Of a DNA stretch of 32,000 nt, positions 15,123 to 31,062 are shown one piece after another. Numbering within the stretch: position 1 is the stretch's first letter; every line of letters begins with the position of its first letter. The DNA is from Planctomycetales bacterium (GTDB lineage Bacteria; 4484-113; JAFGCY01), in assembly GCA_022646745.1 (NCBI GenBank), contig CP060262.1, positions 3,960,001 to 3,992,000 on the forward strand, written 5' to 3'. The translations under genes were made by a program, and so were the position numbers. Below the pieces are notes generated by a model. The model did no database searches. It had not been told where the DNA came from and saw only the letters and a program-made list of their open reading frames with translations.

Positions 15123-16707
15123 TGACGACAATCCCCCTGTCCATCATCTCATTGATGCATTGCATGTCCGCGCTGCGGATGTCCTCCGGCACACTCTGGC
15201 CGGTTGTGAAATAGCTCAGCGGCAGGTCACAGATGCGGCCGATGTTGTGCAGGCCACCGAGGCCGACACATTCATCGAGCTTGCTGAGAACCAGCCTGCT
15301 GCAGCCGAGCCTGGCAAACCCGGCAATCGCACGGCGCGCATCGGCCGCCTGGGTACCGGCGGCCAGCACCAGGTGCACCTCATCCGGCTGGCTGGCCTGC
15401 AGCAGGCTGGCGGTTTCCTCTATGTGTTCACTGCAGCCCGGGCTGCGTCCGGCGGTGTCAACAAGCACCAGGTCGAAGTCCACCAGGCGATCGATCACTT
15501 CCGCAAACTCCTGCGGGCTGAACACCACCTCGAAGCGCAGGCCCATGATCTCCGCATAGCTGCGCAGCTGCTCGGCTGCCGCTATGCGATAGGTGTCAAG
15601 GCTGACAACCGCCACCTTCAGGCCCTGCTCAAACACGGCCTGGGCGGCGATCTTGGCAATCGTCGTCGTCTTGCCGACGCCGGTCGGCCCGACCAGTGCC
15701 ACTACCCGGCGCTGCCCGCTATTCAGGCGCAGGCCACCGCTGAGCAGCACCCCGCGGCAGATCTCACGGCGCACCGCCTGCAGCAGCTGCTGCGGGTCGG
15801 CGGCATTGTCAACCTGCCCGGTCGCAGCCTGCAGCAGTTCCAGTGCATCCGCCAGCGGGATGTTCCACTCGATCAGGGTGTCGAACACATCAGCCTGGCT
15901 GGCATCCAGCCCCATCCCGGCGTGCGGCCCCTGCGGCGGGGCCAGCACTGCGGCCTGCCTCTCCTGTTCCAGCCTGCGTTGCTCAAGTTCCTCGCGCTGC
16001 ACACTGAAGGTCCGTTCCAGTCGCTCAAGTTCGCTGCGGAACTGCTGCGGGATACCGCGGCTGGCAACAGCCTGCTCACGCAGCAGGCGGTCCTGTTCCT
16101 GCTGCCGGCCGGCAAGCTCAGTGATCATCCCGCGGATTTCATCCATCGCACTGTGCAGTTCGCCCAGGCCATGGCCCGGCTCTCCTGCCGCCTGGCTGAT
16201 CACCGGCTGGGCCACAGGATCCCTATGCGGCGTGGCATAGCGGTCCTGCTGCGGCCTTGCAGGCATCTCGGCAATCTCCTGCCGGTGGAAGGCGTCCCGC
16301 AGCCGGCTGATTGCATCGCCATTCGTGGTACGCCCAGCCGTTGGCACCGTGTATGTGGCTTCATCTACTGGAGTATGCCGGAGGATGGCATCACTGCCGG
16401 ATGCACCGTAGCCAGCCAGCAGCTCGCGGCGGATTTCCTCATCGGAAACCTGGCTGGACTCCTGCTGTGGCACAACTGGCTGCCGGGCAGCCGCCTGGCT
16501 GAGCACATCACCGCGCTGCTCCTCAAGGCTGAGCGTGGCGATGATCTCCACCATCTTCTGCCCGCCTATGCCGAGGATGCCGTTGCGGCGAAACTCGCGC
16601 GCCTCCAGCTGGGCCTCCGGCCCCATCTCGCGCTCGATCCGAGACAGCAGGCTGTCCAGGTTCTCGAGCTTCTCCTCATATCTCCTGATCCTAGTCGGCA
16701 TGTTCAT
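15115..16707 (-). CDS. flhF: Flagellar SRP-type GTPase FlhF
   Basis: 530 aa. G1 GPTGVGKTTT, G3 DTAGRS, G4-like SKLDE. The start may be the second ATG at 16701, which is better spaced from GAGGTG. Confidence 0.9.
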   Translation of the reverse strand: MNMPTRIRRYEEKLENLDSLLSRIEREMGPEAQLEAREFRRNGILGIGGQKMVEIIATLSLEEQRGDVLSQAAARQPVVPQQESSQVSDEEIRRELLAGYGASGSDAILRHTPVDEATYTVPTAGRTTNGDAISRLRDAFHRQEIAEMPARPQQDRYATPHRDPVAQPVISQAAGEPGHGLGELHSAMDEIRGMITELAGRQQEQDRLLREQAVASRGIPQQFRSELERLERTFSVQREELEQRRLEQERQAAVLAPPQGPHAGMGLDASQADVFDTLIEWNIPLADALELLQAATGQVDNAADPQQLLQAVRREICRGVLLSGGLRLNSGQRRVVALVGPTGVGKTTTIAKIAAQAVFEQGLKVAVVSLDTYRIAAAEQLRSYAEIMGLRFEVVFSPQEFAEVIDRLVDFDLVLVDTAGRSPGCSEHIEETASLLQASQPDEVHLVLAAGTQAADARRAIAGFARLGCSRLVLSKLDECVGLGGLHNIGRICDLPLSYFTTGQSVPEDIRSADMQCINEMMDRGIVVND

Positions 16708-16712
16708 TCACC

Positions 16713-18866
16713 TCAGGCCTGCTCCTCGGGGTTGGCAATGCTTGCGAAGGTGCGGATCTCCACGTCTCCCGCGATCTCGCCGTAGCTCAGCATCACCATG
16801 CCGCCGAACAGCTTGGCGAACACCTTGCGCAGGTAGGGCCGGATGCGCGGGCTGACGATGAACACCGGCACGTAGCCCTGGCTCTGCATGCGGTTGACCT
16901 GCTCGGTGGCGAGGTCGATCAGCTTGCGCAGGTAGGCCGGCGGCAGCACCGGGATGGTGCCGGTGGTCGTGTTCTGCAGCGAGTTGGCAACTTTCTCCTC
17001 AATGCGCGGGTCAAGTGTCAGCACCGTGATGCGGCCCTCCGCATCTGCATGCTCACTGGCGATCTGCCGGCCGAGCGCCACTCGGACGTACTCATTGAGC
17101 ACCTCCGGATCCTTGCTGACATTGCAGTGGTCCGAGAGCACCTCAAGGATCAGCGGCAGGTTGCGGATGCTGACGCCCTCGGCCAGCAGCAGCATCAGCA
17201 CGCGCTGGATCTCGCCGACGCCGAGCTTGTCAGGCACCAGCTCCTGCACCACGGTCGGGAACTTCTGCTTCGTGAGGTCGATCAGCTCCTGCACCGCCTG
17301 GCGGCTGAGCAGCTCGGCGCAGTTGCGGCGCACGAGCTCCGTCAGGTGTGTTGCCAGCACGGTGGCGCTGTCCACCACGGTGTAGCCGTCCGCCTCGGCG
17401 ATCGCACGTTCATCCGGGTTGATCCAGTAGGCATCGAGACCGAAGGCCGGCTCCTGCACCTTCACACCGCTGAGCTCCGGGCCTTCGCCCGTCGGGCTCA
17501 TCGCCAGGTAGCGGTCGAGCATCAGCTCACCATGGCCGACGGTGTTGGCGCGGATCTTGACGTTGTACTCACCGGGCCTGAGCGTGATGTTGTCACGGAT
17601 GCGCATCGGCGGCACGATGAAGCCGAGGGCGATCGCGGTCTGCTTGCGGATGCCGTTCACGCGCTCCAGCAGGTCGCCGCCCTGTTCGCTGTCAACGAGC
17701 GGAATCAGGCCGTAGCCGATCTCCAGCTCCAGCAGGTCCACGGTCAGCAGCTGCTCGAGGTTGTGGCGGGCCTGCTCCTCCTCCGTCATCGGTTCAGGCT
17801 GGGATTGTCCGCCTTCGCCATCAGCCTTCGGACTGCCATCCGGGGCAGTGCCACCGGCGGCATCCTGCTCCTCAGTACGCTTTGCAACAATTGCGATTGC
17901 GAACAGTGAGCCCGCCGCCAGCGCCATCAGCACCTTCGGCATGCCCGGCACCATCATCAGCACCAGGATGAAGCCACCGCTGATCATCAGCGGCTTGCTC
18001 TGGTTCGTGAGCTGCGTGATCATCGAGAGACCGACCGTCTCGTCGCTGGCGGCCTTGGTGACCATGATGCCGGTGGCAGTGGAGATCAGCAGCGCCGGGA
18101 TGTTGGCGACGAGGCCGTCACCAACCGTGAGCGAGGTGAAGGTGCTGAGCGCCTCGGCGGCACCCATGTGCATCTGCAGCATGCCGATCACGAAGCCGGC
18201 GCCGATGTTGACGATGATCAGGATGATGCCGGCCATCGCATCGCGCTGCACGAACTTCGAGGCACCGTCCATCGCCCCGAAGTACTCCGTTTCGCGCTCC
18301 AGCTTGCGGCGGCGCGAGCGGGCCTGCTCCTCGTTGATCACCCCGGCGTTGAGGTCTGCGTCTATCGAGATCTGCTTGCCCGGCAATGCATCGAGGGTGA
18401 AACGGGCCGCCACCTCACCGATGCGCTGGGCACCGTGCGTGACGACGACGAAGTTGATGATCACGATGATAAGGAAGATCACCAGGCCGACAACCTCGTT
18501 GCCACCTGTGACATATGTCGCGAAGGTGTTGATCACGTGGCCGGCCTCGGCGTTCGAAAGGATCGAGCGCGTGGTGGCAACGTTGAGGAACAGGCGGAAG
18601 ATCGTGGTGAACAGGATCACCGCCGGGAAGATCGAGAAGTCCAGCGGGGTGTTGACATACATCGTGTTCAGCAGGATCACCACGCCGCTGATCAGGGAGA
18701 GGATCACGAACACGTCGAGCAGGCCGGATGGGATGCGCACGACCAGCAGCAGCACCGCTGCGAGGATCGCGAAGGGGACGAGCGCCTCCATCTGTGACTT
18801 CTTCGGTGCCTGCAGCCTGCCCAGCAAGCTGGCCAGCCCGGCACCGGCACTGCTCTGTGCCGACAT
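16713..18866 (-). CDS. flhA: Flagellar type III export apparatus protein FlhA
   Basis: 717 aa. N-terminal polytopic FHIPEP-type domain (FPAVILFTTIFRLFLNVATTR...), a linker, and a large cytoplasmic domain. Followed by flhF-flhG. Confidence 0.96.
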   Translation of the reverse strand: MSAQSSAGAGLASLLGRLQAPKKSQMEALVPFAILAAVLLLVVRIPSGLLDVFVILSLISGVVILLNTMYVNTPLDFSIFPAVILFTTIFRLFLNVATTRSILSNAEAGHVINTFATYVTGGNEVVGLVIFLIIVIINFVVVTHGAQRIGEVAARFTLDALPGKQISIDADLNAGVINEEQARSRRRKLERETEYFGAMDGASKFVQRDAMAGIILIIVNIGAGFVIGMLQMHMGAAEALSTFTSLTVGDGLVANIPALLISTATGIMVTKAASDETVGLSMITQLTNQSKPLMISGGFILVLMMVPGMPKVLMALAAGSLFAIAIVAKRTEEQDAAGGTAPDGSPKADGEGGQSQPEPMTEEEQARHNLEQLLTVDLLELEIGYGLIPLVDSEQGGDLLERVNGIRKQTAIALGFIVPPMRIRDNITLRPGEYNVKIRANTVGHGELMLDRYLAMSPTGEGPELSGVKVQEPAFGLDAYWINPDERAIAEADGYTVVDSATVLATHLTELVRRNCAELLSRQAVQELIDLTKQKFPTVVQELVPDKLGVGEIQRVLMLLLAEGVSIRNLPLILEVLSDHCNVSKDPEVLNEYVRVALGRQIASEHADAEGRITVLTLDPRIEEKVANSLQNTTTGTIPVLPPAYLRKLIDLATEQVNRMQSQGYVPVFIVSPRIRPYLRKVFAKLFGGMVMLSYGEIAGDVEIRTFASIANPEEQA

Positions 18867-19073
18867 ATTCCGCCTATCTCCAAGGTTCCGGTTCTTTTCC
18901 GGAATCCAACCTGCAGTCAGTATTACACAACAGGGCTGTGCGGCGTGTGTGAAAAGCCGAATTCTGGCAACAAGTTTCGGTAAAACGGCTAAAGGGGTGT
19001 GCCCAGGGCAGGCTCAAGTCACACTGGGACTGGCCTCATGCATATCCTGGCAATCGGTTAAGCAGCGGTGAAA

Positions 19074-19790
19074 TCAGTCGCAGCGGAAGCGCACGACGGT
19101 CCAGGGGCTGTCCTCGGACCAGGCGCTGCCATCGTAGCCACCGAAGAACTCCGGCTGCACGCCCTCGGGCAGCAGTTCCTCGATGCGCCGGCGGTTGAGC
19201 ATCAGCAGGCTGCGGCTGCGGCGGTGGAACTTGCCATCGAGCTTCATCTCGGTGGTCTCCTGCAGCGGGCGCGTGGTGGACTCGGTCAGCTTCCAGCTGC
19301 GCCGCATCGACGGCGTGGGCTGGTCCTCCAGTTTGGAGACCCCGGCGGAGACCGACTTCACAAGGTGGTTGACATTGAAGAAGTCCACCACGACATAACC
19401 GCCGGGCCAGGCCAGGTCGCGCAGCTGCAGGATCACGCTGGCGACGTCCTCATCGCTGTCCAGTTCCGGCAGGCGGTTGCCGCAGCAGCAGGCCAGCGCC
19501 AGCGGGCTGCGTACGAGGTCGAACACCTCGAGCATCTCGCCCTGGATCAGGTGGTGCCCCAGCAGCGGGAAGCGCTCGCGTGCCAGCCGGATCAGCCCGG
19601 GGTCAAGCTCCACGCCGTTCGCCTCATAGCCCTCGCCCAGCAGGCGGGCCACGGTCGATCCGTCCTGGCAGCACAGCTCGAGCATCGCCGCGGGCGGCTT
19701 GGGCAGGCAGGCGCGCAGGAACTCATAGCGCTGCTCATCGAAGCGATCGCAGAACACGGGCTGTGACTGGGGGCTGTCCATCGCCGCCAT
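19074..19790 (-). CDS. Class I SAM-dependent methyltransferase-like protein with an atypical motif I
   Basis: 238 aa. MLELCCQDGSTVARLL...GYEANGVELD has motif I / post-I geometry, but the usual GxGxG is replaced by CCQDG. Divergent from the pilin-like array. Confidence 0.55.
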   Translation of the reverse strand: MAAMDSPQSQPVFCDRFDEQRYEFLRACLPKPPAAMLELCCQDGSTVARLLGEGYEANGVELDPGLIRLARERFPLLGHHLIQGEMLEVFDLVRSPLALACCCGNRLPELDSDEDVASVILQLRDLAWPGGYVVVDFFNVNHLVKSVSAGVSKLEDQPTPSMRRSWKLTESTTRPLQETTEMKLDGKFHRRSRSLLMLNRRRIEELLPEGVQPEFFGGYDGSAWSEDSPWTVVRFRCD

Positions 19791-19884
19791 TATATCGGGC
19801 AGCCGGCGGAGAGCGCTTTTCGATCAGCGGTAACATTTGCGCCTGCAGCTTCATCCTGTAACTGGAGCCAGCTAAGGAGTTCCG

Positions 19885-20919
19885 ATGATTTATGCGAGAG
19901 GCAGCGCCGGGGGGCGCTGGCTGATGGGATTGACCACGCTTGCCGTGGTGCTGGCACTGGCCGGATCAATGCGGCTCGTGCCTGACCTGCGCTCAAGGGC
20001 GCGGGAAGCTGAGACGAAACAGAACCTGCATGCGATCCAGCTTGCGCTGGAACGGTATGAGGTCGACTTTGTAACTGGGACCTATCCACTTTGGTTGAGC
20101 GGCGGAGTTGTTTCAGGCGCGCTCAGCGAAGCAGGATCAAGCCGGCTGAAGCTTGATCCCCTGCTTGATGACGGTTACTTCACTAAGTATCCACCAAATC
20201 CGTTCACTGTCCAGGACAGCAGGCAGCGCGAACTGATTGCGCTGGCCCAGTCACTGACCAATGATCAACTCAGTCCGGAGAGCAGTTCCGCAGAAGTAGC
20301 TCCAGCGTACCGCTTTGGCAGCGAACATGACCTGATGGGCAATGTATTGGCCAACTTCCGCATGGCGCAGAAGTTCTGTGGCACCGATGCAGACGGGCAT
20401 GCAGTACTGAGTCCAACAGGTGCTGACACCTTCTACTTCAGTGTGAATCAGCCAACGCAATCTCCCAGCCGCCGGATGCTGCAGGGCCAGTTCGGTTACT
20501 TCCCGATCGATTACCACGAGGTGATCGAAGTCAGTGTCACTCCGGACAGCGGATACTACCTGCCGCTCGGGTACTCCCTCATCTGCTGGGGAAGTGCTCG
20601 CAACAAAGGGAAGGACACCCTGAGTAATGCTTCGCTGCAATACTGCACAGATGCCAATGGAGCGGCAATGCTTGCCTGGCAGCGAATGGAATCTCCTCTG
20701 GCAGCCGACGAGGAATTCGACGCCCTGGCAGCAGTTGCCAGTAACGTCGATCTTATGGAACTGATTTACATACCGGCGGAGAATGCCTGGGATGGCATCC
20801 CGGATGGCGTGTTGATTTCACTTGGCAATGGAACACATTGCGGTATCCAGTCCGAATACCGTCAATCAAGGTCCTTGGAGTCAGCGCCAGAACAAATGGG
20901 AAATAGCAATGGCAGCTAA
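19885..20919 (+). CDS. Large GspG-like pilin-domain paralog 1 (degenerate prepilin signal; most diverged member)
   Basis: 344 aa. AAGGAG lies 5 nt before the ATG. N-terminus GGRWLMGLTTLAVVLALAG, then EAETKQNLHAIQLALERYEVD..YPLWLSGG, DPLLDDGY..YPPNPF, YRFGSEHDLMGNVLA, GSARNKGKD. Confidence 0.7.
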   Translation: MIYARGSAGGRWLMGLTTLAVVLALAGSMRLVPDLRSRAREAETKQNLHAIQLALERYEVDFVTGTYPLWLSGGVVSGALSEAGSSRLKLDPLLDDGYFTKYPPNPFTVQDSRQRELIALAQSLTNDQLSPESSSAEVAPAYRFGSEHDLMGNVLANFRMAQKFCGTDADGHAVLSPTGADTFYFSVNQPTQSPSRRMLQGQFGYFPIDYHEVIEVSVTPDSGYYLPLGYSLICWGSARNKGKDTLSNASLQYCTDANGAAMLAWQRMESPLAADEEFDALAAVASNVDLMELIYIPAENAWDGIPDGVLISLGNGTHCGIQSEYRQSRSLESAPEQMGNSNGS

Positions 20920-21907
20920 GGGCAGCAACACAGGCCGCTGGCTGATGGGCGTGCTAAGCGTGGTAATCGTTGCTGCGCTGATCCTCGTGGCAGTTCCGAA
21001 CATGATCAGGGTCACGGATTGCAACAATCGCGAAGCCGAAACCAAGCAGAACCTGCATGCAATCCAGCTTGCCATTGAGAGGTACGCGGTTGACCACGGT
21101 GGAACTTACCCACTCTGGCTGAGCGGTGGGTTGGAGGTGTCCTATTCCGGATCTGGTCCTGATTTTGACTACATTGCAGACAAGCTGATGGTTGAAGGCT
21201 ATATGCCAGACTACCCCTCCAACCCTTTTATAAAGTCCACGGAGTCACGAGCAAACAAGGATCTCTTTAAACTGCAGAAGGATCTGGATGACCCATTGTC
21301 TTATGGAAGCTCCGCGTGGATACAGAATATGCGTTTTGGTGCAACAGGAAAGGTCGCGATGGGTAATGTGCTGGCTGATCCCCGCTTCGCCCAAATGCCA
21401 TATATTGATGCCAAAGGCAATCAAGGGATTGCAGGCACAGGGACGGACGTGATCTTTCGCTGCTGGGACACGCAGCAATTGCAGGAGCCGCAGTACTGGC
21501 TGCAGGGCCAGTTCTTCTACAAGTCCGATGCCGGTCATTATTCCGAAAACGACGACATCTCAGTGCTGGACTTCAGCGGGGATGTGGCTGACAACTACAT
21601 CCTGGGATGCTTTGGCTCCTTCAGGAGCAAGGGCAAGGACATCCTTGGTGAGGAACACTCTGCGCCATGGTGGGTTGAAACTGGCAGAAGCGCACAGGTC
21701 TGGGGATTCCACGGAATCCCCGTGCCTGGCAACCCACTGCGCCAGGGCAGCCCATTCGGCAGCAGCAATGGCACACCACCCAGCCCATTCCAGTATGGCA
21801 ACCCGAATGGAGTACGGGATGGAATACTTCTGGTCCTGACAAGGGGTGAAGGCTATGACTCTGAGTCCATTGAAACAGAAAAGGCTGATGGGGGTGAAGT
21901 TCAATGA
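20909..21907 (+). CDS. Large GspG-like pilin-domain paralog 2 (degenerate prepilin signal)
   Basis: ATG at 20909 (332 aa) overlaps the paralog 1 stop by 11 nt. KGSNTGRWLMGVLSVVIVAALILVAVPN, EAETKQNLHAIQLAIERYAVDHGGTYPLWLSGG, PQYWLQGQFFYK, GSFRSKGKDILG, YGNPNGVRDGILLVLT. Confidence 0.72.
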   Translation: MAAKGSNTGRWLMGVLSVVIVAALILVAVPNMIRVTDCNNREAETKQNLHAIQLAIERYAVDHGGTYPLWLSGGLEVSYSGSGPDFDYIADKLMVEGYMPDYPSNPFIKSTESRANKDLFKLQKDLDDPLSYGSSAWIQNMRFGATGKVAMGNVLADPRFAQMPYIDAKGNQGIAGTGTDVIFRCWDTQQLQEPQYWLQGQFFYKSDAGHYSENDDISVLDFSGDVADNYILGCFGSFRSKGKDILGEEHSAPWWVETGRSAQVWGFHGIPVPGNPLRQGSPFGSSNGTPPSPFQYGNPNGVRDGILLVLTRGEGYDSESIETEKADGGEVQ

Positions 21908-22935
21908 CAGCTAAGGGACACGGTATCAGGCGCAGCGTCATGGGATGTGTGGCCATCCCGCTGCTGATCATCATTGCTGCTGTTCTCATCGAAAATCCAT
22001 TCAGGATCAAGCCCGGCAAGGGACACCGCGAAGCCGAAGCCCAGCAGAACCTGCATGCGATCCAGCTGGCACTGGAGCGCTATGCTGTGGACTACGGTGG
22101 AGTGTACCCACTCTGGCTGAGCGGCGGAGGAATTGCAGACCCGGCTGCCGGAGAAATCGATCCGCATTTCGCAATGGACCCCCTGATGGCTGAAGGCTAC
22201 ATGCCGCAATACCCGCGCAATCCTTTCAACCGGCTTGGCACCGGGGATACGAATGATAATCTTCGGGCGATGCAGGTCAGGCTCAGCGACCCACTCAGGC
22301 CAGGCTCTGGCAGCAGCATGGAACCACCCGTATACCGCTTCGGCAGGGACTACACCCTGATGGGCAATGTGCTGGCGGATCCGCGCTTCGCCGAAGTGAT
22401 TGTGGGCACGGACAGCAATGGCAACGCCGTCCGGAAGCGGACCGGCTCGGATGTTATCTACCGCTGCTGGGACATCGAAGAACTTGACGAGCCGCAGTAC
22501 TGGCTTCAGGGGCAGTTCTTCTACAAGGTCCCTTCAGGCAGGACTTCATTTGTGAATGACATTTCCCAGTTTTCCTTCAAGACCGATGTAAGTGGAGATT
22601 ACATCCTCGGCACCTACGGTTCATATCGCAATAAGGGCAAGGACATTCTTGGGGATGAGTTGCCATGGCAAGTTATTCATAATGGCAATGCCACAGCACG
22701 ATTGCTCTGGTCCTTCAATGGCATAGAGATGCCTGGAAAAAGCTACAGGCAGGGCAGCCCATACAACTGGCCAGTCGCTGGAGACTACTCCGGCTTCCCG
22801 ATTTGCTATGGAAATCCAAATGGGCAGCGAGACGGCTTGATTCTCGTATTAACCGCTGAGAATCCTGCAGACATGCAATTCGACTATCCAGATCCCCAGG
22901 ACATCAATCAGAAATCTGAATATTCATGGGATTAG
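21904..22935 (+). CDS. Large GspG-like pilin-domain paralog 3 (degenerate prepilin signal)
   Basis: 343 aa. ATGA overlap with paralog 2. GIRRSVMGCVAIPLLIIIAAVL, EAEAQQNLHAIQLALERYAVDYGGVYPLWLSGG, YRFGRDYTLMGNVLADPRFAEVIVGTD, YRCWD, PQYWLQGQFFYK, YGNPNGQRDGLILVLT. Confidence 0.72.
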   Translation: MTAKGHGIRRSVMGCVAIPLLIIIAAVLIENPFRIKPGKGHREAEAQQNLHAIQLALERYAVDYGGVYPLWLSGGGIADPAAGEIDPHFAMDPLMAEGYMPQYPRNPFNRLGTGDTNDNLRAMQVRLSDPLRPGSGSSMEPPVYRFGRDYTLMGNVLADPRFAEVIVGTDSNGNAVRKRTGSDVIYRCWDIEELDEPQYWLQGQFFYKVPSGRTSFVNDISQFSFKTDVSGDYILGTYGSYRNKGKDILGDELPWQVIHNGNATARLLWSFNGIEMPGKSYRQGSPYNWPVAGDYSGFPICYGNPNGQRDGLILVLTAENPADMQFDYPDPQDINQKSEYSWD

Positions 22936-22951
22936 GAAGGTTCTGACAATT

Positions 22952-24013
22952 ATGACTAACAAGGGCAGTAACACAGGTCGGTGGCTGATGGGGGTGATCT
23001 CCGTCGCTGTGGTGGCGGGGATCATCCTGATCGCGGTTCCGATGGTGTTTGGCAACCACCGCCATCCACAGTACCAGGAAACCGAGGTCAAGCAGAATCT
23101 GCATTCGATCCAGCTGGCAATTGAGCGCTATGCGGTGGACAGCGAGGGCAGGTATCCGCAGTGGATCAGCGGCGGCAGTCATGCTCCGGGCAGCCTCGGC
23201 GGACCGGATGCCGCGTACACTGCCGATGTACTGATCATGGAAAGCTACATGCCGAGTTGCCCCGCCAACCCCTTTGCCAGAACTGGACAGGCCAGGAATG
23301 AAACCCGCCGGGCCGTGCGCGAGATGCAGGAACTGCTGAATGACCCGCTGCAGCCAGTCGAAGGGGGCGACCTGTCCGCCCCGGCCTACCGCTTCGGAAA
23401 GGATTACGAGTTGATGGGCAATGTGCTGGCGGATCCGCGCTTCGCCGAAGTGATAGTGGGCACGGACAGCGATGGCAACGCCATCCGGAAGCGGACCGGC
23501 ACGGATGTAATCTACCGCTGCTGGGACACCGAGGCTTTGGACAAACCGCAGTACTGGCTGCAGGGCCAGTTCATGTACAAATCCTTCGGACCGCTGATTG
23601 CAGCAGGCGATGCAGGTGCTGAACCGGACTTTGGCAAACTGCACGCGGACATGTACATGCTCGCCGGCTACGGCAGTGTGCGCACGAAGGGCCAGGATGT
23701 GCTGGGTCCGGAGCAGCAGCTCAGGCCGGAGAGCGGGGCTCAGTCGCAGCTGAGGCTGCTCAATTACACGGGCCTGAGCATCCCGGGCTTCTCCGGGCGG
23801 CAGGCCAGCCCCTTCAGCTTCGGCGGTACGGATGCGGAGCAGCCGCTTGTCAGTTTCGGCAACCCCAATGGAATTACCGACGGACTGATCATGGTGCTGA
23901 CGGCCGGACAGCAGCAGTCGATGGCCCTGCAGGAACGAGAAGCGGATGTGCTTGCAGTGCCGGATGGTGATGTGCTGGAGGAAGGCGCAGAAGCTCAGGG
24001 AGACAATGAGTAA
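22952..24013 (+). CDS. Large GspG-like pilin-domain paralog 4 (degenerate prepilin signal)
   Basis: 353 aa. KGSNTGRWLMGVISVAVVAGIILIAVP, ETEVKQNLHSIQLAIERYAVDSEGRYPQWISGG, YRFGKDYELMGNVLADPRFAEVIVGTD, PQYWLQGQFMYK, GSVRTKGQDVLG, FGNPNGITDGLIMVLT. Confidence 0.72.
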   Translation: MTNKGSNTGRWLMGVISVAVVAGIILIAVPMVFGNHRHPQYQETEVKQNLHSIQLAIERYAVDSEGRYPQWISGGSHAPGSLGGPDAAYTADVLIMESYMPSCPANPFARTGQARNETRRAVREMQELLNDPLQPVEGGDLSAPAYRFGKDYELMGNVLADPRFAEVIVGTDSDGNAIRKRTGTDVIYRCWDTEALDKPQYWLQGQFMYKSFGPLIAAGDAGAEPDFGKLHADMYMLAGYGSVRTKGQDVLGPEQQLRPESGAQSQLRLLNYTGLSIPGFSGRQASPFSFGGTDAEQPLVSFGNPNGITDGLIMVLTAGQQQSMALQEREADVLAVPDGDVLEEGAEAQGDNE

Positions 24014-24120
24014 GAAATCTGGCAACTGCTGACATGGCAGCGATGCGGGTCTGGTTCATATCTCCTGGCTTTGCTGCGGGATGAATGCCCGCAGACCGGC
24101 GAGCTGAATGCTCGCGCTCC

Positions 24121-24168
24121 ATACTGTTTACGGATTACGCTTCACTGTTTACTGTTCATGGTTCACTG
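24121..24168 (+). repeat. About 2.3 imperfect 21-bp phased direct repeats (core ACTGTTTAC / TTCACTG)
   Basis: ACTGTTTAC at 24123-24131 and 24144-24152; TTCACTG at 24141-24147 and 24162-24168. ACTG recurs at exact 21-nt intervals in a locally AT-richer stretch. Confidence 0.5.
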
Positions 24169-24172
24169 ATCC

Positions 24173-24192
24173 CGGCGACAGGAGTGTCGCCG
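24173..24192 (+). terminator. Perfect 8-bp hairpin downstream of paralog 4 (possible terminator or attenuator)
   Basis: CGGCGACA-GGAG-TGTCGCCG followed by a pyrimidine-rich tract. There is no clean U-run. Confidence 0.3.
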
Positions 24193-24195
24193 CTA

Positions 24196-24254
24196 CTTCC
24201 CTCACTTCCCTCACTTCCTCCACTTCTTCGACTTCTTTCACATTTCACTTCCCA
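24196..24254 (+). repeat. Tandem 9-nt repeat array CTTCNNTCA (5 full units plus 2 degenerate)
   Basis: CTTCCCTCA CTTCCCTCA CTTCCTCCA CTTCTTCGA CTTCTTTCA CATTTCA CTTCCCA, head to tail. Confidence 0.6.
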
Positions 24255-24487
24255 GTTGGGAACAAACTCCACGGCGCATGGTCTGACAATCTGCTAAGGG
24301 ACATAATTACCGGTCGGCGCACTGCAAAGGAGGTGGGTCGAACCGCAGGAGCCTTGCGGCTCCAAAGCAACTGGTGGGATAGAGCCGGACGGGTGGCTGG
24401 CAGCAGACCATTATTGCCATTCTTTCCATTCATTCATTCCGACACTGGCAGTACACCGCATACCGCTCATTCCCACACCCGGACAAC

Positions 24488-24537
24488 GGAGGTCAGGCTG
24501 TCAGCCTGGCAGGAGCCAAGTCAACGACTTGGCCTCC
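24488..24537 (+). repeat. 50-nt double-hairpin extragenic element, copy 2
   Basis: GGAGG-TCAGGCT-GTC-AGCCTGG-CAGGA-GCCAAGTC-AAC-GACTTGGC-CTCC. Relative to copy 1, the C-G pair in hairpin 2 has become T-A (a compensatory change). Confidence 0.7.
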
Positions 24538-24689
24538 AGCAACGGAGCCGCGAAGCAAAGCTTCGCAGGCTTTGGTCGAATCCACTCAGCTGCGCCACGC
24601 ATGCGCGTGACTCCGCAACGTGGCTCCCTGCTCCGGGCAACTCCATGCGCGCCAATCAGCGCGCCCAGTACTGTCAACACTGATGCATC

Positions 24690-25838
24690 ATGGAATACTC
24701 TGCAAACACCAACAAGCGTCGCGGCTTCACCCTGATCGAGCTGCTGGTTGTGATCGTGATCATCGGCATCCTCGCCGCGATCGCGCTGCCGAACTACATC
24801 AAGGTCAAGGACAAGGCCAAGGAAGCCGAGGTCAAGGCCAACCTGCACAACATCCAGCTTTCCGTCGAGCGCTGGGCCGTTGACAGTGAAGGCCCCTACC
24901 CGAACTACCTGATCGGCGGCGAGCCGAAGTACGCCGCCCAGGTGATCGAGTCCGCCTCCGCCAGTGCCTTCAACCAGGTGACCGAGATCGACCCGACCGA
25001 GCGCGCCAGCGACCCGCTGCTGCGCCGGGGCTACGTTGATGCCTACCCGAAGAACCCCTTCACCACCAACGGCGTCGCCATCCACCGCGTGCAGGAGACC
25101 CTGCCGACGAGTGCAGTGAACTCCAGCGACCCGCTGCGCAACGGCCAGGGCAACCCCGGTGAGGACTACGGCACGCGCTTTGGCCCCTACTGCACCAGCA
25201 TGGGCTCAGTGCTTGCCGACCCGCGCTATACGCAGTGGATCTACTTCAACCTGGACAACGGCACGCGCAACGTGGAGAACACGTATGCCAACATCGAGTA
25301 CGACTTCTGGGACATGTGGCAGGGCAACAAGCCCTTCCCATACCTGCCCGGCATGTTCTTCTACAAGAGCAGCGGCCCGATCATCGCGGCGGGGAACGAT
25401 GATGCCTCGACGGCACCGATCATCCCGACCCAGAGCGACCAGTACATGCTGGGCGGCTATGGCAGCATCCGTACCAAGGGCAAGGACGTGCTTGGCGAGG
25501 AGGAGCAGGTCATTTACTTCCAGCGCGCCGCAGCCGGTTCCAGCAACTGGCTGGCCGATGCAGATCAGCCTGGACAGCCCTCCACCGGGCCGATGGCGGG
25601 CCCGCCTCCGAATGACGGCGATATCGGCAGCGGAGGCGGCACCGGCAAGGTCGAACTGCGCATCTGGCCCTGGACCCGCAGCCAGAGCGGCGACCCGGAT
25701 GCCCGCAGCGGCAGCCCGTACTCAGTCGGCGATGTGGGGGACAACAACGACCAGCTGCAGTACGGCAATCCGAACGCGATCCGCGATGCGGTGATCCTGG
25801 TGCTTACTGCCGGAGAGGACTACGACGGCGACCGCTAA
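24690..25838 (+). CDS. Large GspG-like prepilin with a canonical class III signal (paralog 5)
   Basis: 382 aa. MEYSANTNKRRG|FTLIELLVVIVIIGILAAIALPNY is the prepilin cleavage/methylation motif with Glu5. Then EAEVKANLHNIQLSVERWAVDSEGPYP, DPLLRRGYVDAYPKNPF, GSIRTKGKDVLG, YGNPNAIRDAVILVLT. Double stop TAATAG. Confidence 0.82.
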   Translation: MEYSANTNKRRGFTLIELLVVIVIIGILAAIALPNYIKVKDKAKEAEVKANLHNIQLSVERWAVDSEGPYPNYLIGGEPKYAAQVIESASASAFNQVTEIDPTERASDPLLRRGYVDAYPKNPFTTNGVAIHRVQETLPTSAVNSSDPLRNGQGNPGEDYGTRFGPYCTSMGSVLADPRYTQWIYFNLDNGTRNVENTYANIEYDFWDMWQGNKPFPYLPGMFFYKSSGPIIAAGNDDASTAPIIPTQSDQYMLGGYGSIRTKGKDVLGEEEQVIYFQRAAAGSSNWLADADQPGQPSTGPMAGPPPNDGDIGSGGGTGKVELRIWPWTRSQSGDPDARSGSPYSVGDVGDNNDQLQYGNPNAIRDAVILVLTAGEDYDGDR

Positions 25839-26131
25839 TAGCGATTCCGGCTGGAATTATGGGGGAGACTCCGGCATTGCGCCGTGAGTCAGAGGGGGCG
25901 CGGCCTGGCGGACGGGTCGCGCCCCTGCCATACAAGCAAAAACCCGCCCAGGCCGGACGGGTGTTTGAGGTAGGGGTTCAATATGAAATGCTACCGTGGC
26001 GTTTTGTACCGGAAGTAAAAGCCAGGTTGAATCCCCGTGAAACGAATTTATCTGCTGTTTCACAATATAATATACCGGCCTTCGTGGTATGAACCCCGAC
26101 TGACGGAATGCAGCCGGAAACCGGCTGGCCC

Positions 26132-26160
26132 TTGCAATTGGGGCCCCTTCGGTATATAAT
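26132..26160 (+). promoter_or_regulatory. Near-consensus sigma70 promoter
   Basis: TTGCAA (26132-26137), 17-nt spacer, TATAAT (26155-26160). The GGGAG SD and the ATG at 26190 follow. Confidence 0.6.
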
Positions 26161-26189
26161 CTCCGGTTCAATCCCCAGGGAGTGAAATT

Positions 26190-26501
26190 ATGGCGACTAC
26201 CAAGAAGACCACGACACGCAGAACGACCGCAGCCAGCAAGAAGACTGAAGGCGAATTCCCGGTGTATGACCCCGGTGCCGGCGCTGACGCATACAAGAAG
26301 GGCGACATCGTCTTCTTCGAGAAGGTGCGCAACTGGCTGGACAAGGGCGCCTTCGTCTCCGCCCACGGCAAGGTGACGAGCGTCGGCAAGTTCGACGGTG
26401 AAGTGCCCTACATCGAAGTCAGCTTCGACCAGGCAAAGAGCAAGAACGACGTGGACCTCGGCAAGGACAAGCGCAAGTTCCTGCTCGAAGTGAAGGGCTG
26501 A
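26190..26501 (+). CDS. Small protein of unknown function (basic T/K-rich N-terminus plus an ~80-aa domain)
   Basis: 103 aa with a strong promoter, an SD and an intrinsic terminator. GC3-rich codons. No family recognised. Confidence 0.65.
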   Translation: MATTKKTTTRRTTAASKKTEGEFPVYDPGAGADAYKKGDIVFFEKVRNWLDKGAFVSAHGKVTSVGKFDGEVPYIEVSFDQAKSKNDVDLGKDKRKFLLEVKG

Positions 26502-26536
26502 TCTCCGCGGGACTTTCCCGCAGAACATGAAGATTG

Positions 26537-26564
26537 AAGGCCGGCCTGCGGGTCGGCCTTTTTT
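26537..26564. terminator. Intrinsic terminator (bidirectional; convergent with the histidine phosphatase gene)
   Basis: AAGGCCGGCC-TGCG-GGTCGGCC followed by TTTTTT. The 26-nt core is the exact reverse complement of the hairpin at 4342-4368. Confidence 0.7.
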
Positions 26565-26573
26565 CATTCCGGC

Positions 26574-27176
26574 TCAGCCGACGTGCACCTTCCACATCTC
26601 GATGCGCTCCCGCTCCTGCATGTCCCAGACATCCACCTCGTCATTGTTCTGGCGGAAGCCCGCAGCGCTTTCCACATCTGAGCGGCCGCTGATCGCGACT
26701 TTCATCGCCATGTTGATCGCCTGGTGTGCCACCACCAGCACATCTCCGTCGATCGCCGACTGCAGTAGCTGGATGAGGTAGGGCTTGACCCGCGCAGCTC
26801 CGTCAAGGATGGATTCCCCTCCCGGAGGTGCCGTGGTGTACTGGCTCTCCCGCCATTTGGTGTATGCACTGCCGTACTCGTCCTGCAACTCTGTCTCCAG
26901 CCGTCCCTCGTAGTCCCCAAAAGAGATCTCCATGAAGCCCGGTTCAGGCTGATATGGGGTATCCGTACCCTGCACGATGATGCGGGCGGTCTCAACGGCG
27001 CGAACCAGCGGGCTCGAACGGGCCAGTGTGAACTTCACGCCGCGCCGATCCAGCTCCTCGCGGATCTGCCAGGCCTGGGCGAAGCCGGTTTCATTGAGGG
27101 GGACGTCGGTCGTGCTCTGGAAGCGCTTGGCACGGTTCCAGTCGGTCTGGCCGTGGCGCACAAGGTAGAGGGCCAT
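26574..27176 (-). CDS. Histidine phosphatase family protein (phosphoglycerate mutase-like)
   Basis: 200 aa. N-terminal LYLVRHGQTDWN (RHG motif), a second His in VVAHQAIN, and SSPLVRAVETA. Confidence 0.8.
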   Translation of the reverse strand: MALYLVRHGQTDWNRAKRFQSTTDVPLNETGFAQAWQIREELDRRGVKFTLARSSPLVRAVETARIIVQGTDTPYQPEPGFMEISFGDYEGRLETELQDEYGSAYTKWRESQYTTAPPGGESILDGAARVKPYLIQLLQSAIDGDVLVVAHQAINMAMKVAISGRSDVESAAGFRQNNDEVDVWDMQERERIEMWKVHVG

Positions 27177-27266
27177 GCATCAATTATCCCACAGCGTGCG
27201 TCATACTTAGCTAGCGCAGGCTCCGGGGTGCGTGCCAGCATCGGCCGGACTGCGCGAATTATAATC

Positions 27267-28946
27267 ATGGCCTTGCTGATAAGCATTACAGCCTGCATCC
27301 TCAGTGCCCTGCTTCTGGCACTGTCGTTCCCCCTCAGCCTGCCCCCGGAACTGATGCAGCCGCTGCCGTCCAGTGGCGTAACGATCCCCGGCTGGCAGGC
27401 TGCCGGCGGTTTCGCACAATTACCATGGCTGGCATTCGTGGCGCTGATTCCGTTTCTGTGGGTGATCCGCCGCAGCCCCTCTCCCGCCGCCGCCGCCGGC
27501 TACGGCTACCTGACTGGTGCATTGTGGCTGCTGTTGCACCTCGACTGGATCGGTTCATTCGGCATCGCGCCGGTGATCATGCTGACCCTGTTCTTCTCAC
27601 TGCCGACGGCACTATTCGCCTGGCTGGGCCAGCGCATCTTCAACGAGCGCAGCGCGGCTTATGCCTGCTGGGGCCTGCCGGCGATCTGGACCGCACTTGA
27701 GTACCTGCGCAGCTTCGGCTTCTGGGCCCTGCCCTGGAACCTGCTGGGTTACAGCCAGACCGCCAGCCTGAAGCTGATCCAGGTTGCCGACCTCGGTGGC
27801 GTGTTCGCCGTCAGCTTCATGGTGATGCTGGCCAACTGTGCGCTGTTTCTGCTATTCAGTGGCCATGGTGGAGGGCAGCGTGCACTGGCCCACAGCCTGC
27901 TCGCTGCCAGCCTGATTTGCGCAGCACTGGGCTATGGCGACTGGCGCATAGGCCAGCTGGAGGACATGCCGCGTGAGCAGCGCATCCAGGTCGCACTGGT
28001 ACAGGGCGGCGTTGACACCAAGGGCCGCTGGAGCGGTGACGAGCTGCAGCGCATGCTCGGGGTGTATGAACCGGCCAGTGAGGAACTGGCGCGCAAATGG
28101 AGTGGGGAGCGCACCGAGGAACGCCGCGCGCAATTCGAGGACAGTGCCGACAGCGATGGCTTCGTGGCCGACTACACCGGCCCGCTGGATGAGCCGCAGC
28201 TGCTGCTGGTCTGGCCGGAGTCCTGTATCCCGAAGCGCGTGGAGCCGGCGCATCCGGACGACCTGCCGCTCGGGATCTGGAACATCGTCGAAAGCAATGA
28301 GAACACGACGCTTTTGATGGGCGCACTGTCCAACCCACACAATGAGGATGACTGGGAGAACACTGCAGTGCTGGTCAGGCCTGACCATGTGATCGAATGG
28401 GCCTACAGCAAGGTGCGGCTTGTGGCATACGGCGAGGTGGTGCCTTTTCGCGGCATCGTCAAGTTCCTCGACTACCCCTGGGGCAGCCGCGACCTGACCG
28501 GCGGGCGGGATACCGCCAGCTTTGAGCTGCGTGGGGTGCAGGTCAGCCCGATGGTCTGCTTTGACAACATCTTCAGCTTCCTGTTCATGCGCGAGGCCCG
28601 CCGCGGCAGCGACATGTTCCTCTTGATCACCAACAACTCCTGGTACGACCTCAAGAACGGCATCCGCCAGCACGCGGACATCGACGTGCTGCGCGCCGTG
28701 GAGCACCGCCGCCCGCTGGCCCGCGTCAGCACCACCGGCTGGAGCCACTTCATCGAGCCGAGCGGCCGCATCAGCCAGCAGAGCAACACTGATGAACTGG
28801 CAACGCTCACGCAGTGGGAGGGACGCAGCAGCATCCACTCCTGGTACACCAGGCTTGGCGATCTGTTCGCCCAGCTCTGCGTGCTGGCCAGCATCCTGCT
28901 CGGCCTCAAGCTGGTGTTCGCGCACCGCAGCGAGGGCTGGCTGTGA
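27267..28946 (+). CDS. lnt: Apolipoprotein N-acyltransferase
   Basis: ATG at 27267; the longer track ORF from 27153 would overlap the divergent gene. N-terminal polytopic domain plus CN-hydrolase domain with Glu (LLVWPES), Lys (YSKVRLVAYGEVVPF) and Cys (PMVCFDNIF). Confidence 0.87.
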   Translation: MALLISITACILSALLLALSFPLSLPPELMQPLPSSGVTIPGWQAAGGFAQLPWLAFVALIPFLWVIRRSPSPAAAAGYGYLTGALWLLLHLDWIGSFGIAPVIMLTLFFSLPTALFAWLGQRIFNERSAAYACWGLPAIWTALEYLRSFGFWALPWNLLGYSQTASLKLIQVADLGGVFAVSFMVMLANCALFLLFSGHGGGQRALAHSLLAASLICAALGYGDWRIGQLEDMPREQRIQVALVQGGVDTKGRWSGDELQRMLGVYEPASEELARKWSGERTEERRAQFEDSADSDGFVADYTGPLDEPQLLLVWPESCIPKRVEPAHPDDLPLGIWNIVESNENTTLLMGALSNPHNEDDWENTAVLVRPDHVIEWAYSKVRLVAYGEVVPFRGIVKFLDYPWGSRDLTGGRDTASFELRGVQVSPMVCFDNIFSFLFMREARRGSDMFLLITNNSWYDLKNGIRQHADIDVLRAVEHRRPLARVSTTGWSHFIEPSGRISQQSNTDELATLTQWEGRSSIHSWYTRLGDLFAQLCVLASILLGLKLVFAHRSEGWL

Positions 28947-30064
28947 GCATCAGCCACGAAAGCGCCGGTACAGCCCTCAAAGGGACATCCCTGTCGCTCA
29001 GTGGCGGCGGCTTCCGCGCCACCCTGTTCCACCTTGGCAGCCTGACGCGCCTGAATGAACTGGGCTGGCTGCCGAAGCTGGACCGCATCGTCTGTGTCAG
29101 CGGCGGCAGCATCCTCGGTGCCTGGCTCGGTTGCCGCTGGCAAGAGCTGCGCTTCGAAGGCGATGTCGCCACCAACCTGAGTGAGGTGGTTGGTGATCCG
29201 CTCCGCAAGCTGTGCTCAATGCGCATTGACGTTGCCAGCCTGTGGAGCTACCCGCTGCACCTGCGGGGCAATGGCTCACGGCTCGGCCTGCTTTATGCGA
29301 AACACATGTATGGCACGGCCACCCTGGCTGAGCTGCCAAGAGCCCCGCAAGTGGAGCTGATGGCGACCAACCTGCTGACCGGCGGTTACGTTTCAATGTC
29401 CGCACGTGGCATCCATGACAACCGCATCGGCCTGCTGCCAATGACCGACCTGCCGGTGGCAATGGCGGTGGCGGCCTCCTGCGCACTGCCCCCCTACTTC
29501 TCACCGATCCATGTGAAGTCCGACCCGGCTGACTGGCAGCTGGAGGATGTGGCGCGCAAGCTCGAAGACCCGCGCATGCGCAAACGCATGCTGTTGGCGG
29601 ACGGGGGTGCCTATGACAACCTCGGGATGGAAGCGGTGCTGGATGTGAACGAGACGATCCTGTTCAGCGATGCCAGCTCCCTGTTCCCGGCCTGGAAGAG
29701 CCTGGCGCGCGACCGCACCCTGCAGCTGATGCGCAGCAACACGGTGATGGTCAGCCGGCTGCGCAGCCTGCGCAAGCGCTACCTGCTCGAGCAGCGGCTT
29801 GGCAACCCCGGGCATCCGCAGCGCGGGGCCTACTGGGGGATCTCGAGCGAGATCGAGGACTATGGGCTGGACGATGCGCTGGCAACGGACAGTGAGCAGA
29901 CCGCCTCACTTGCCTACACGCGCACACGCCTGAGCCGCTTCTTCGAGGAGGAGCAGGCCCAGCTGATCAACTGGGGTTACGCGCTGACGGATGCGGCGAT
30001 GCGGCGTTACCTCAATGCGGACGGCCCGACCCCGCAATGGCCCTGCCCCGAACACAGGTTGTAG
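28943..30064 (+). CDS. Patatin-like phospholipase family protein
   Basis: The GTG at 28943 overlaps the lnt stop (GTGA). Oxyanion motif LSGGGFRA, nucleophile elbow-like CVSGGS, and catalytic Asp in ADGGAYDNLG. The start is inferred, not certain. Confidence 0.78.
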   Translation: MSISHESAGTALKGTSLSLSGGGFRATLFHLGSLTRLNELGWLPKLDRIVCVSGGSILGAWLGCRWQELRFEGDVATNLSEVVGDPLRKLCSMRIDVASLWSYPLHLRGNGSRLGLLYAKHMYGTATLAELPRAPQVELMATNLLTGGYVSMSARGIHDNRIGLLPMTDLPVAMAVAASCALPPYFSPIHVKSDPADWQLEDVARKLEDPRMRKRMLLADGGAYDNLGMEAVLDVNETILFSDASSLFPAWKSLARDRTLQLMRSNTVMVSRLRSLRKRYLLEQRLGNPGHPQRGAYWGISSEIEDYGLDDALATDSEQTASLAYTRTRLSRFFEEEQAQLINWGYALTDAAMRRYLNADGPTPQWPCPEHRL

Positions 30065-30068
30065 GAGC

Positions 30069-31010
30069 TCAGTTGGCAAGCAGGCTGCCGGACTTGGCAG
30101 CCGTATAGGCGAAGATCAGCCAGTCCGCGAACACATGCACGATGAAAGCCGGCCACAGGCTGCGCCGGCGCCATGTCCAGGCCCCAAGCAGCACGCCCCA
30201 GCCGCCGGCGAGCACGAGGCCCATGATCCCCTGCGGGGTGCCGTACCAGTGGATCAGCCCGAACACGAGACCCTGCAGCAGCACCTGGTGGCGGGCCCGC
30301 ATCAGGGTGCGCAGTGATCCGAGCAGCACGCCACGGAACCACAGTTCCTCCTGCAGCGCGTTGACAACGGCGAACAGCGCACCGGCAACCAGGAACTTCG
30401 AACGTCCCATTTCGGCGGATATGCCGAATGGCGACCATTGGCCGTGGTTCTCACCGAAGTAGTACTGGTAGCCATACAGCCCGCCGAAGGTCAGCGCGAG
30501 GAAGCCGACAGTGATCAGGATGTCAACCGGCAGGAAGCGGAACTTCAGGTTGAAGTGGAAGCGCACCCGGGTGATGCGGCGTGAATACAGCAACACCGCC
30601 ACCACGCCGATCAGTTCAAGCGCGTAGTAGATGTAGTCCGGATGAACGGGAATGCCCGCCAGGTCCAGCAGGCTGGGAGTGCCCCATGCCTTGTTGCCAA
30701 TAATCAGCGCATAGATTAGGCGCACAAGCCCGAAGTGCACCAGCATGAAGATCGCCAGCAGCTTCAGGTGCCCGGCCGGTTCGAGATCAGACAGTGCGGT
30801 CGGGATGAACTGCCCGTCGCGCTGTGTCAGGTATTCACGACGGCTGTAGACCACCGCGGCAAGCAGGATCACCAGCATTGCCAAGTACTGCAGCGGGTGC
30901 ATCCGCCAGAAGAATTCCTGCATGGCCGCCATGCAGGGCAGCATGGCAATCACCAGCCCGTAGAGGGGCGCAAGCCGTGCATCTGGGGAGCCGGGGACAG
31001 ACACAGTCAC
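30069..31010 (-). CDS. CPBP family (CAAX/Abi-type) intramembrane glutamic endopeptidase
   Basis: 313 aa, polytopic. Motifs QEELWFRG (EExxxR), FGLIHW (FxxxH) and HVFADW (HxxxD/N). GTG start at 31010 is uncertain. Confidence 0.8.
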   Translation of the reverse strand: MTVSVPGSPDARLAPLYGLVIAMLPCMAAMQEFFWRMHPLQYLAMLVILLAAVVYSRREYLTQRDGQFIPTALSDLEPAGHLKLLAIFMLVHFGLVRLIYALIIGNKAWGTPSLLDLAGIPVHPDYIYYALELIGVVAVLLYSRRITRVRFHFNLKFRFLPVDILITVGFLALTFGGLYGYQYYFGENHGQWSPFGISAEMGRSKFLVAGALFAVVNALQEELWFRGVLLGSLRTLMRARHQVLLQGLVFGLIHWYGTPQGIMGLVLAGGWGVLLGAWTWRRRSLWPAFIVHVFADWLIFAYTAAKSGSLLAN

Positions 31011-31062
31011 ATTATGTCAGATTACTGAGCAATGGCCTAAATCTCCCGTGTAAGATCAGCCC

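Follow-up and report, generated by a model that had tools for sequence, protein, structure and literature searches.

Type IV pili are widespread, and nearly all structural knowledge of them comes from the small (15-20 kDa) pilins of cultured bacteria. In their precursors the glycine at position -1 (Gly-1) is the main determinant of cleavage by prepilin peptidase, and the glutamate at position 5 (Glu5) of shaft subunits forms a salt bridge in the filament core. At variable pilin loci, examples being the pilA allele island of Pseudomonas aeruginosa and pilE/pilS of Neisseria, the pilin is exchanged within a conserved frame, with a conserved 5′ segment acting as the crossover site. Pilins well over 300 aa are already known, including the modular pilins PilB and PilC of Streptococcus sanguinis, CofB, GspK and ComZ, and a tip location and a binding function have been proposed for such modular or large pilins (PMC8179133). 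Type 4 filaments also possess a tip complex, whose cap is a subunit without Glu5 (PMC10191384).

Here we describe a tandem array of five paralogous pilin-type open reading frames (ORFs), g1 to g5 (19885-25838, + strand), found in a 32-kb stretch of DNA (contig CP060262.1, positions 3,960,001 to 3,992,000; the window) from an uncultured wastewater bacterium. All five proteins are present in GenBank (MCB1220403-07 / UNM08336-40), where they are named 'hypothetical' or, in three cases, 'type II secretion system protein'. A preliminary description of the locus had regarded them as giant pseudopilins resembling GspG of the type II secretion system (T2SS), with no assembly machinery nearby, and had given the length of ordinary pilins as only about 120-170 aa, a range that is too narrow since pilins of 300 aa and more are known (PMC8179133). 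The analysis reported here leads to a different reading, which on balance we consider probable, namely that the locus is a paralogous expansion of lineage-specific, large-headed type IVa pilins in which g5 is the shaft pilin and g1-g4 are accessory subunits outside the shaft.

The family of g5 and its pilus machinery

Only g5 (24690-25838, + strand, 382 aa) has a canonical class III prepilin signal. Its short basic leader (MEYSANTNKRRG), ending in NKRRG, is followed by FTLIELLVV (FTLIELLVVIVIIGILAAIALPNY...; RRG|FTLIE), giving the protein Gly-1, Phe+1, Glu+5, Gly14 and Pro22. It matches Pfam N_methyl (PF07963, E=2e-10, 40.2 bits, cutoff 21.2) and TIGR02532 (37.6 bits, cutoff 16.3), and its N-terminus matches the PilA, GspG and ComGC models of NCBIfam. 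These signal residues, together with a long alpha-1 helix, are shared with type IVa major pilins such as the PilA proteins of Myxococcus, Thermus and Pseudomonas and the PilA-N of Geobacter. The canonical subfamily has many members, which share an extremely conserved N-terminus.

Among metagenome-assembled genomes (MAGs), a GTDB scan found the family in those named 'UBP7' or 'Planctomycetales bacterium'. A 405-aa PilC/GspF gene immediately precedes members that are 81-83% and 65% identical to g5, and members 50-54% identical form the last gene of a pilB (605 aa)-pilT (380 aa)-pilC-pilin cluster, the position after pilB-pilT-pilC also being that of type IVa major pilins, to whose PilA/geopilin N-termini the best matches belong. 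Canonical members follow pilC in loci L001-L006, L013-L018 and L073 and close pilB-pilT-pilC in L019-L024 and L026; counted overall, there are at least 17 loci with pilC-pilin and seven with pilB-pilT-pilC-pilin. The best NCBIfam matches of the operon products were PilB (611 bits), PilT/PilU (466 bits, cutoff 319) and Thermus-type PilC (406 bits).

In the closest genome, HKST-UBA01, the counterpart of g5 is 98% identical and the flanks are 95% identical at the nucleotide level. Both HKST-UBA01 and AC1.30 carry a pilC-linked copy (L013 and L014, respectively) as well as an flhA-linked array copy (L010 and L011). With both copies present in these relatives, the machinery missing here probably reflects the position of the genes and not the organism. 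The pilC-linked pilin of the lineage and g5 are paralogs. The G+C content at third codon positions (GC3) is 0.87 for g5 as against 0.75 for the pilC-linked copy. The preliminary description was right that the 32-kb window has no assembly genes, as tblastn gave no match there for pilB, pilT or pilC. The orphan system that it deduced from this finds no support, as members in relatives directly follow pilC or close a pilB-pilT-pilC-pilin cluster and the nearest genome has a pilC-linked copy.

The proposed identity with GspG likewise had to be abandoned. The GspG model TIGR01710 scored 48.9 bits on g5 (E=6.6e-13), below its cutoff of 88.85 and over model positions 1-61 of 134, and 13.6 bits on g2, while PilA models outscored it on g5. 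The N-terminal 60 residues do align with GspG (PDB 5wda, E=1e-4), but the GspG head is absent, the protein is 2.5 times larger, and the operons of relatives contain PilT and no gsp genes, none of which were found in the window or in the flanks of relatives. A PilT retraction ATPase, along with the better PilA/geopilin matches, argues against a T2SS and for a pilus of type IVa, and by these signatures the family is a type IVa major-pilin family of the UBP7/'Planctomycetales' MAG lineage. Literature searches on UBP7 and on Planctomycete pilins found nothing on this pilin family.

The family differs from known type IVa major pilins in its head, which has about 300 aa compared with about 90-150 aa and shows no sequence or Foldseek similarity to solved pilins. 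It also has no conserved disulfide-bonded D-region, and the window copy lies far from the machinery and beside flagellar genes. That the C-terminal region matches no named domain, as first observed, was borne out: the head had no Pfam or NCBIfam match in scans of all five proteins, a 114-sequence profile of the family found only pilin N-termini among PDB sequences (geopilin 6.5e-10, PilA 2e-8, GspG 1e-4), and Foldseek returned no match, pilin or other fold, to the g5 and g4 models in the PDB or to the g5 model in BFVD (best E 0.26, TM < 0.1). The description of these proteins as pilin-type, with a long N-terminal helix and a globular head, also agrees with AlphaFold2, which predicts a helix at residues 15-65 of g5 (predicted local distance difference test score [pLDDT] 88.1; predicted template modelling score [pTM] 0.83) and at residues 7-63 of g4 (pLDDT 85.2, pTM 0.82), followed in both by a beta-rich head.

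A head-only profile searched against 1.84 billion representatives identified only 207 clusters. In full-length proteins the domain begins near residue 65, behind the pilin-type helix, and in those with an extra N-terminal extension near residue 120-155. The head was never found without the helix, and in 114 sequences the polar residues of the helix face (E45, E47, K49, N51, H53, Q56, E60, R61 and D65) vary hardly or not at all. It is therefore not a free module displayed on a pilin-type stalk, as had been proposed, and its sequence conservation identifies it as an integral, enlarged pilin head. In this it differs from the modular pilins, which are minor pilins composed of a pilin module and a separable extra module that also exists outside pilins; the canonical member here, unlike them, is like a major pilin in where its gene lies and in how conserved it is. 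A further likeness is to the DUF1559/H-X9-DG and Verru_Chthon cassette proteins, which are also lineage-specific, multi-copy prepilin-type families of ~300-350 aa in genomes like those of the Planctomycetes-Verrucomicrobia-Chlamydiae (PVC) group. PF07596 (SBP_bac_10/DUF1559) gave no match at E<=1 in the five proteins or at E<=0.1 in members of a sister subfamily, matches to TIGR02596 and TIGR02599 were weak and N-terminal only, and the head belongs to a different family.

Six family members (P0111, P0118, P0139, P0141, P0147 and P0156) have a clearly non-pilin N-terminus made up of a zinc-ribbon and a transmembrane segment. In P0141 and P0139 it takes the place of a prepilin leader; their genes, from two genomes (L085 10001-12201; L086 8001-9197), have that for prolyl-tRNA synthetase close by, and the zinc-ribbon member of L085 is directly followed by a canonical one, P0148. 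The sister subfamily forms further arrays of ~350-aa canonical pilin-like genes in the same genomes. It shares the N-terminal 70 aa with the g5 family, head similarity being weak or none over most of the length, and Pfam gives nothing beyond the N-terminal motif. One such cluster consists of three canonical prepilin genes of ~345-355 aa (L070 6224-11017; L075 6253-11023), which makes giant pilin-like proteins a general trait of the lineage. Residues ~285-318 of g5 (25542-25643) are a Gly/Pro/Asp-rich insertion that only g5-type proteins have. Its pLDDT is low and its sequence differs from one ortholog to another, so that a surface loop, either flexible or modified, is possible.

The array of g1 to g4 and its variation

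Upstream of g5, and likewise on the + strand, lie g1 (19885-20919, 344 aa), which takes the first array position in all related genomes, g2 (20909-21907, 332 aa from its ATG; MAAKGSNTGRWLMGV...), and the Glu5-less pilin paralogs g3 (21904-22935, 343 aa) and g4 (22952-24013, 353 aa; MTNKGSNTGRWLMGV...). The open frame of g2 starts at a TTG at 20822, and its ATG start agrees with GenBank MCB1220406. There is an 11-nt overlap between g1 and g2, an ATGA overlap between g2 and g3, a 16-nt gap between g3 and g4 and a 676-nt spacer between g4 and g5, and the ORF listing thus reproduces the genes, coordinates and spacings first reported. Shine-Dalgarno-like sequences precede g1, g3 and g4. At the DNA level, the array shows direct-repeat families spaced ~1.0-1.05 kb apart, far above chance, with a repeat identity among array genes of ~60-64%. 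In a five-way protein alignment g1-g4 are 27-36% identical to g5, with 55 invariant columns, and about 40 invariant head positions are common to all five paralogs. The shared motif series seen earlier is present in the alignment (EAExKxNLHxIQLxxER[YW]xVD..G.YP.[WY]L.GG; DPL...Y...P.NPF; RFG...MG.VLA..R; GS.R.KG.D.LG; GNPN...D), and g1 is indeed the most diverged, its C-terminal GNPN motif being eroded.

The N_methyl motif (PF07963), suggested earlier as a check on the whole set, separates g5 from the rest. No N_methyl match was found for g1-g4 in Pfam or NCBIfam and all four lack Glu+5, so that four of the five are without a canonical class III signal. They keep the long N-terminal helix, the aligned residues being G|RWLMG (RRSVMG in g3) with an Arg at +1, and GRWLMG recurs in nearly all array paralogs. 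The leader is short and ends in Gly (GRWLMG) in g1, g2 and g4, that of g1 being also basic (..GGRWLMGL), while g3 (KGHGIRRSVMG) has lost the helix-adjacent Gly present in its L012 relative (GIGRRVMG), L012 being the locus of HKST-UBA03.

Amino acid identity to L010 is 93-99% for the flanking genes (dN/dS 0.04-0.12 vs L010; GC3 about 0.8-0.9 for most), close to that given above for g5 (dN/dS 0.084 vs L010), and falls to 90% for g1 (dN/dS 0.28 vs L010, GC3 0.61), 73% for g3 (dN/dS 0.30 vs L011, GC3 0.64), 64% for g4 (dN/dS 0.20 vs L012, GC3 0.75) and 60% for g2 (dN/dS 0.24-0.34, GC3 0.61), whose best relatives are only 52-60% identical. Overall, dN/dS of g1-g4 is 0.20-0.39 at dS up to 1-2, in tests resting on few orthologs. 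These values are well below 1 and do not resemble the pseudogene-like evolution, with dN/dS near 1, that the preliminary description had raised as a ground for rejecting its proposal. Judged by this measure, g1-g4 are under weaker constraint yet functional.

A blastn comparison with L010 showed collinearity at 95% nucleotide identity over 14593-21129 and 24279-32000 of the window, the first stretch stopping at 21129, inside g2. The interior of this frame (21130-24278, + strand) is a hypervariable cassette that takes in the remainder of g2, all of g3 and g4 and the beginning of the spacer, with patchy 68-85% matches to L010. Within it, 22027-24197 (g3-g4) is 86% identical at the nucleotide level to L012, the flanks of which are only 80-82% identical, and g4 is 91% identical in amino acids to the L012 copy, with a dS of 0.26 that is lower than that of the flanks (0.35-1.0). 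L011 has a chimera to which g3 is 84% identical, with an N-terminus of g2 type and a body of g3 type. There are two array genes other than g5 in L087, four in the window and L010 and five in L011 and L012, and the array ORFs are intact in four or five genomes. The exceptions are the g4 ortholog of L011, which is split (233 + 93 aa), and one array copy of L087 truncated to 251 aa. The last array gene before the g5 ortholog in L010 (8517-9509, P0133) is a divergent canonical GFTLIE prepilin of 330 aa with no counterpart in the window; its presence in the HKST-UBA01 array ties the array to the pilus system.

Breakpoints lie just past the conserved 5′ segment that encodes the helix, where the DNA of the paralogs is most alike. 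This segment may thus be the substrate for recombination, by which head cassettes would be swapped, duplicated and lost between strains. The locus would then resemble the known variable pilin loci in its conserved frame and recombining region, with the difference that g5 is constant here, the accessory paralogs vary and the cassettes are full genes and not silent fragments.

Between the cassette and g5 lies an ultra-conserved non-coding block of ~230 nt (24279-24510, + strand), a candidate leader or regulatory element. In an alignment of four genomes it is nearly invariant, although identity in the coding flanks is only about 80%, and it occurs only in syntenic loci, upstream of g5 orthologs. 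The + strand folds with z = -2.15 and carries three CTGGCAG motifs, and no Rfam match was found for the block. Either a leader RNA or a densely packed regulatory site could account for it. A sigma-54 promoter in the spacer was considered and rejected, as by eye the CTGGCAG repeats lack GG-N10-GC spacing.

Possible roles of the Glu5-less subunits

In the reading we favour, g5 would be cleaved by prepilin peptidase and polymerised as the shaft subunit by PilB, PilC and PilT encoded elsewhere in the genome, as the linkage of the family and the integrity of its motif suggest. The gene is also preceded by a highly conserved region of its own, and no other gene of the locus has as strong a codon bias. 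The g1-g4 proteins appear to be diverged copies of the g5 type which have kept a membrane-inserting helix but, having lost Glu5, would be unable to form a shaft. They would serve the g5 filament as accessory subunits of low abundance. Most likely they would enter it first, at the tip or as a cap, and give the pilus a strain-specific head; failing that, they would stay anchored in the inner membrane. A processed role at the tip or cap is preferred because Gly-1 (kept in 25 of 36 short-leader non-canonical members, compared with 8 of 36 for Glu+5) and a short basic leader are retained, Glu5-less caps are known and Gly-1 is what chiefly determines cleavage. The paralogy, the state of the signal motifs, the confident folds without known homologs, the linkage to pilB/pilT/pilC in relatives, the selection regimes and the mosaic array are observations; processing, polymerisation, tip location and any ligand of the head are inferred.

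Among described subunits, g1-g4 are like the Glu5-less tip or cap minor pilins (GspK/PilK/PilX) in having no Glu5, a pilin helix, mostly Gly-1 and a cluster of about four genes. They differ from GspH-K/FimU-PilX in that they are paralogs of the major pilin head, all four and not one of four lack Glu5, they carry Arg+1 and they are hypervariable between strains. A more specific form of this idea, offered as a tentative possibility, is that the array constitutes a recombining library of Glu5-less caps, cleaved after Gly and able to occupy only the first position on a constant g5 shaft, so that cassette swapping would give strain-specific tips.

A number of points weigh against an accessory-pilin interpretation of the locus. 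The pil machinery genes were identified in the closest relatives, the search in the genome of this bacterium having covered the 32-kb window, and a shaft assembled from subunits of 37 kDa would far exceed known type IVa pili in thickness, perhaps by too much for passage through a standard secretin. The pilin topology expected of the head, an antiparallel sheet packed on alpha-1C, was looked at through secondary-structure strings only, and Foldseek returned no pilin fold. Arg+1 is unusual for a prepilin-peptidase substrate and g3 lacks the Gly, and the sequences behind the Gly-1 count are phylogenetically non-independent. A GC3 as low as that of g1-g4 (0.61-0.75) speaks for weak expression or a relaxed constraint, as do the broken L011 and truncated L087 copies, and the zinc-ribbon extensions indicate that permanently membrane-anchored, non-pilus roles have evolved within the family.

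Several of these points feed the alternative that survives best, which we nevertheless regard as rather unlikely. It holds that g1-g4 are not pilus subunits and have an uncleaved signal anchor and a periplasmic head, which might for instance regulate or partner the pilin pool or the assembly platform, with only g5 entering filaments. The lack of an N_methyl match or Glu5 in g1-g4, the missing helix-adjacent Gly of g3 and a GC3 low enough to suggest low abundance all fit with this, as does the repeated origin in the family of zinc-ribbon and transmembrane N-termini, one of them paired with a canonical member (L085). However, Gly-1 and the short basic leader are preferentially kept while the rest of the helix varies, and a mere anchor needs neither. 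Cassette replacement between near-identical strains is also more typical of exposed than of periplasmic proteins.

It is quite improbable that g1-g4 are decaying duplicates of a pilin gene without a function of their own. Their GC3 is below that of all neighbours, copy number varies, and the split L011 copy, the 251-aa L087 copy and the eroded C-terminus of g1 are what decay would leave; but ORFs that are intact in four or five genomes with the dN/dS given above, the confident AlphaFold model of g4, the shared invariant head positions and the Shine-Dalgarno-like sites before g1, g3 and g4 speak against it.

The original proposal of orphan, T2SS GspG-like giant pseudopilins displaying a novel module without dedicated machinery is very improbable and largely refuted. 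It could draw on the weak N-terminal similarity of g5 to TIGR01710, the GenBank names of three of the proteins and the lack of machinery inside the window, but the match is below cutoff and confined to the helix half of a model that PilA models outscore, and relatives embed the family in pilB-pilT-pilC-pilin clusters, the retraction ATPase being no part of a T2SS, while the closest genome has pilC beside a sister copy (L013).

Least probable by far is a Neisseria-like pilE/pilS system in which g1-g4 would be silent donors converting an expressed g5 for antigenic variation, for although tandem pilin-like copies that recombine with one another do lie upstream of a single pilin gene predicted to be well expressed, g1-g4 are complete ORFs with start codons, N-termini of their own and ribosome-binding-site-like sequences, are too divergent for gene conversion at 27-36% protein and ~60-64% DNA repeat identity, and lie next to a g5 that is 98% conserved between strains with differing arrays.

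Neighbouring genes and significance of the locus

To the left of the array are genes for FlhA, FlhF, a MinD/FlhG-like ATPase, CheB, CheW, CheC, CheD and a FliA-like sigma factor, and to the right those for a histidine phosphatase, Lnt, patatin and a Rce1-like protease. The flagellar and chemotaxis neighbours had been recognised correctly in the preliminary description; the methyltransferase-like gene also named there is present, its similarity being weak and sub-threshold (Methyltransf_25, E=0.0012) with a degenerate motif I, LELCCQDGS. This 238-aa ORF (19074-19790, - strand) is divergent from g1 and always flanks the array (L007/L011, L010, L012 and L087), and with a dN/dS of 0.058 it is strongly conserved; it is a gene of the syntenic frame and only a candidate member of the system. 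A functional tie to the adjoining flagellar operon was rejected and the adjacency is treated as a coincidence of synteny, since it is kept only in one shallow clade (the window, L010/L011/L012 and L087) and elsewhere the family adjoins pilC or the prolyl-tRNA synthetase gene.

Directly downstream of g5 there is a 103-aa ORF (26190-26501, + strand) with a Lys/Thr/Arg-rich N-terminus (MATTKKTTTRRTTAASKK...) and no Pfam match. It was found in the window, L007/L011, L008, L010 and L012 and is 95-96% identical even in distant genomes (dN/dS 0.06-0.09, GC3 0.84). Two genes of the window are far more diverged from L011/L012 than their neighbours, namely the patatin-like gene (28814-30064, + strand; 65% amino acid identity) and, in its alignable part, FlhF (15115-16707, - strand; 56-59%), both with a dN/dS of about 0.47-0.48 against these loci. 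Scans of the window found no tRNA genes and detected no integrase, so that nothing marks the array as a mobile island. A promoter and terminator scan showed no enrichment over shuffles, and Rfam gave only sub-threshold noise over 19000-27000 at E<=1.

The size of these proteins alone is not new. What is new is a head family without detectable relatives, the major-pilin gene position of such a head, a better codon-adapted second copy detached from the machinery, and the hypervariable Glu5-less array that adjoins it. If its role in the shaft is true, g5 is to our knowledge the largest bacterial shaft pilin described. Whichever role g1-g4 have, the database label 'type II secretion system protein' is corrected, and the domain family merits a Pfam entry and an experimental structure.

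For the organism, the locus points to an uncultured candidate phylum (UBP7-type MAGs) with a pilin of roughly 37 kDa, in which a constant shaft-type gene is accompanied by strain-variable, Glu5-less paralogs. Should the variable proteins be retained in the membrane, the array would document the recruitment of pilins to non-filament roles. If they are tip subunits, it would represent a new and simple genetic route to diversity of the pilus tip and a natural test of the Glu5-less capping model. Were the array a library of tips in the sense proposed above, these could differ in adhesion, in the recognition of prey or partners, or in the evasion of phages, which would be a previously undescribed mode of variation.

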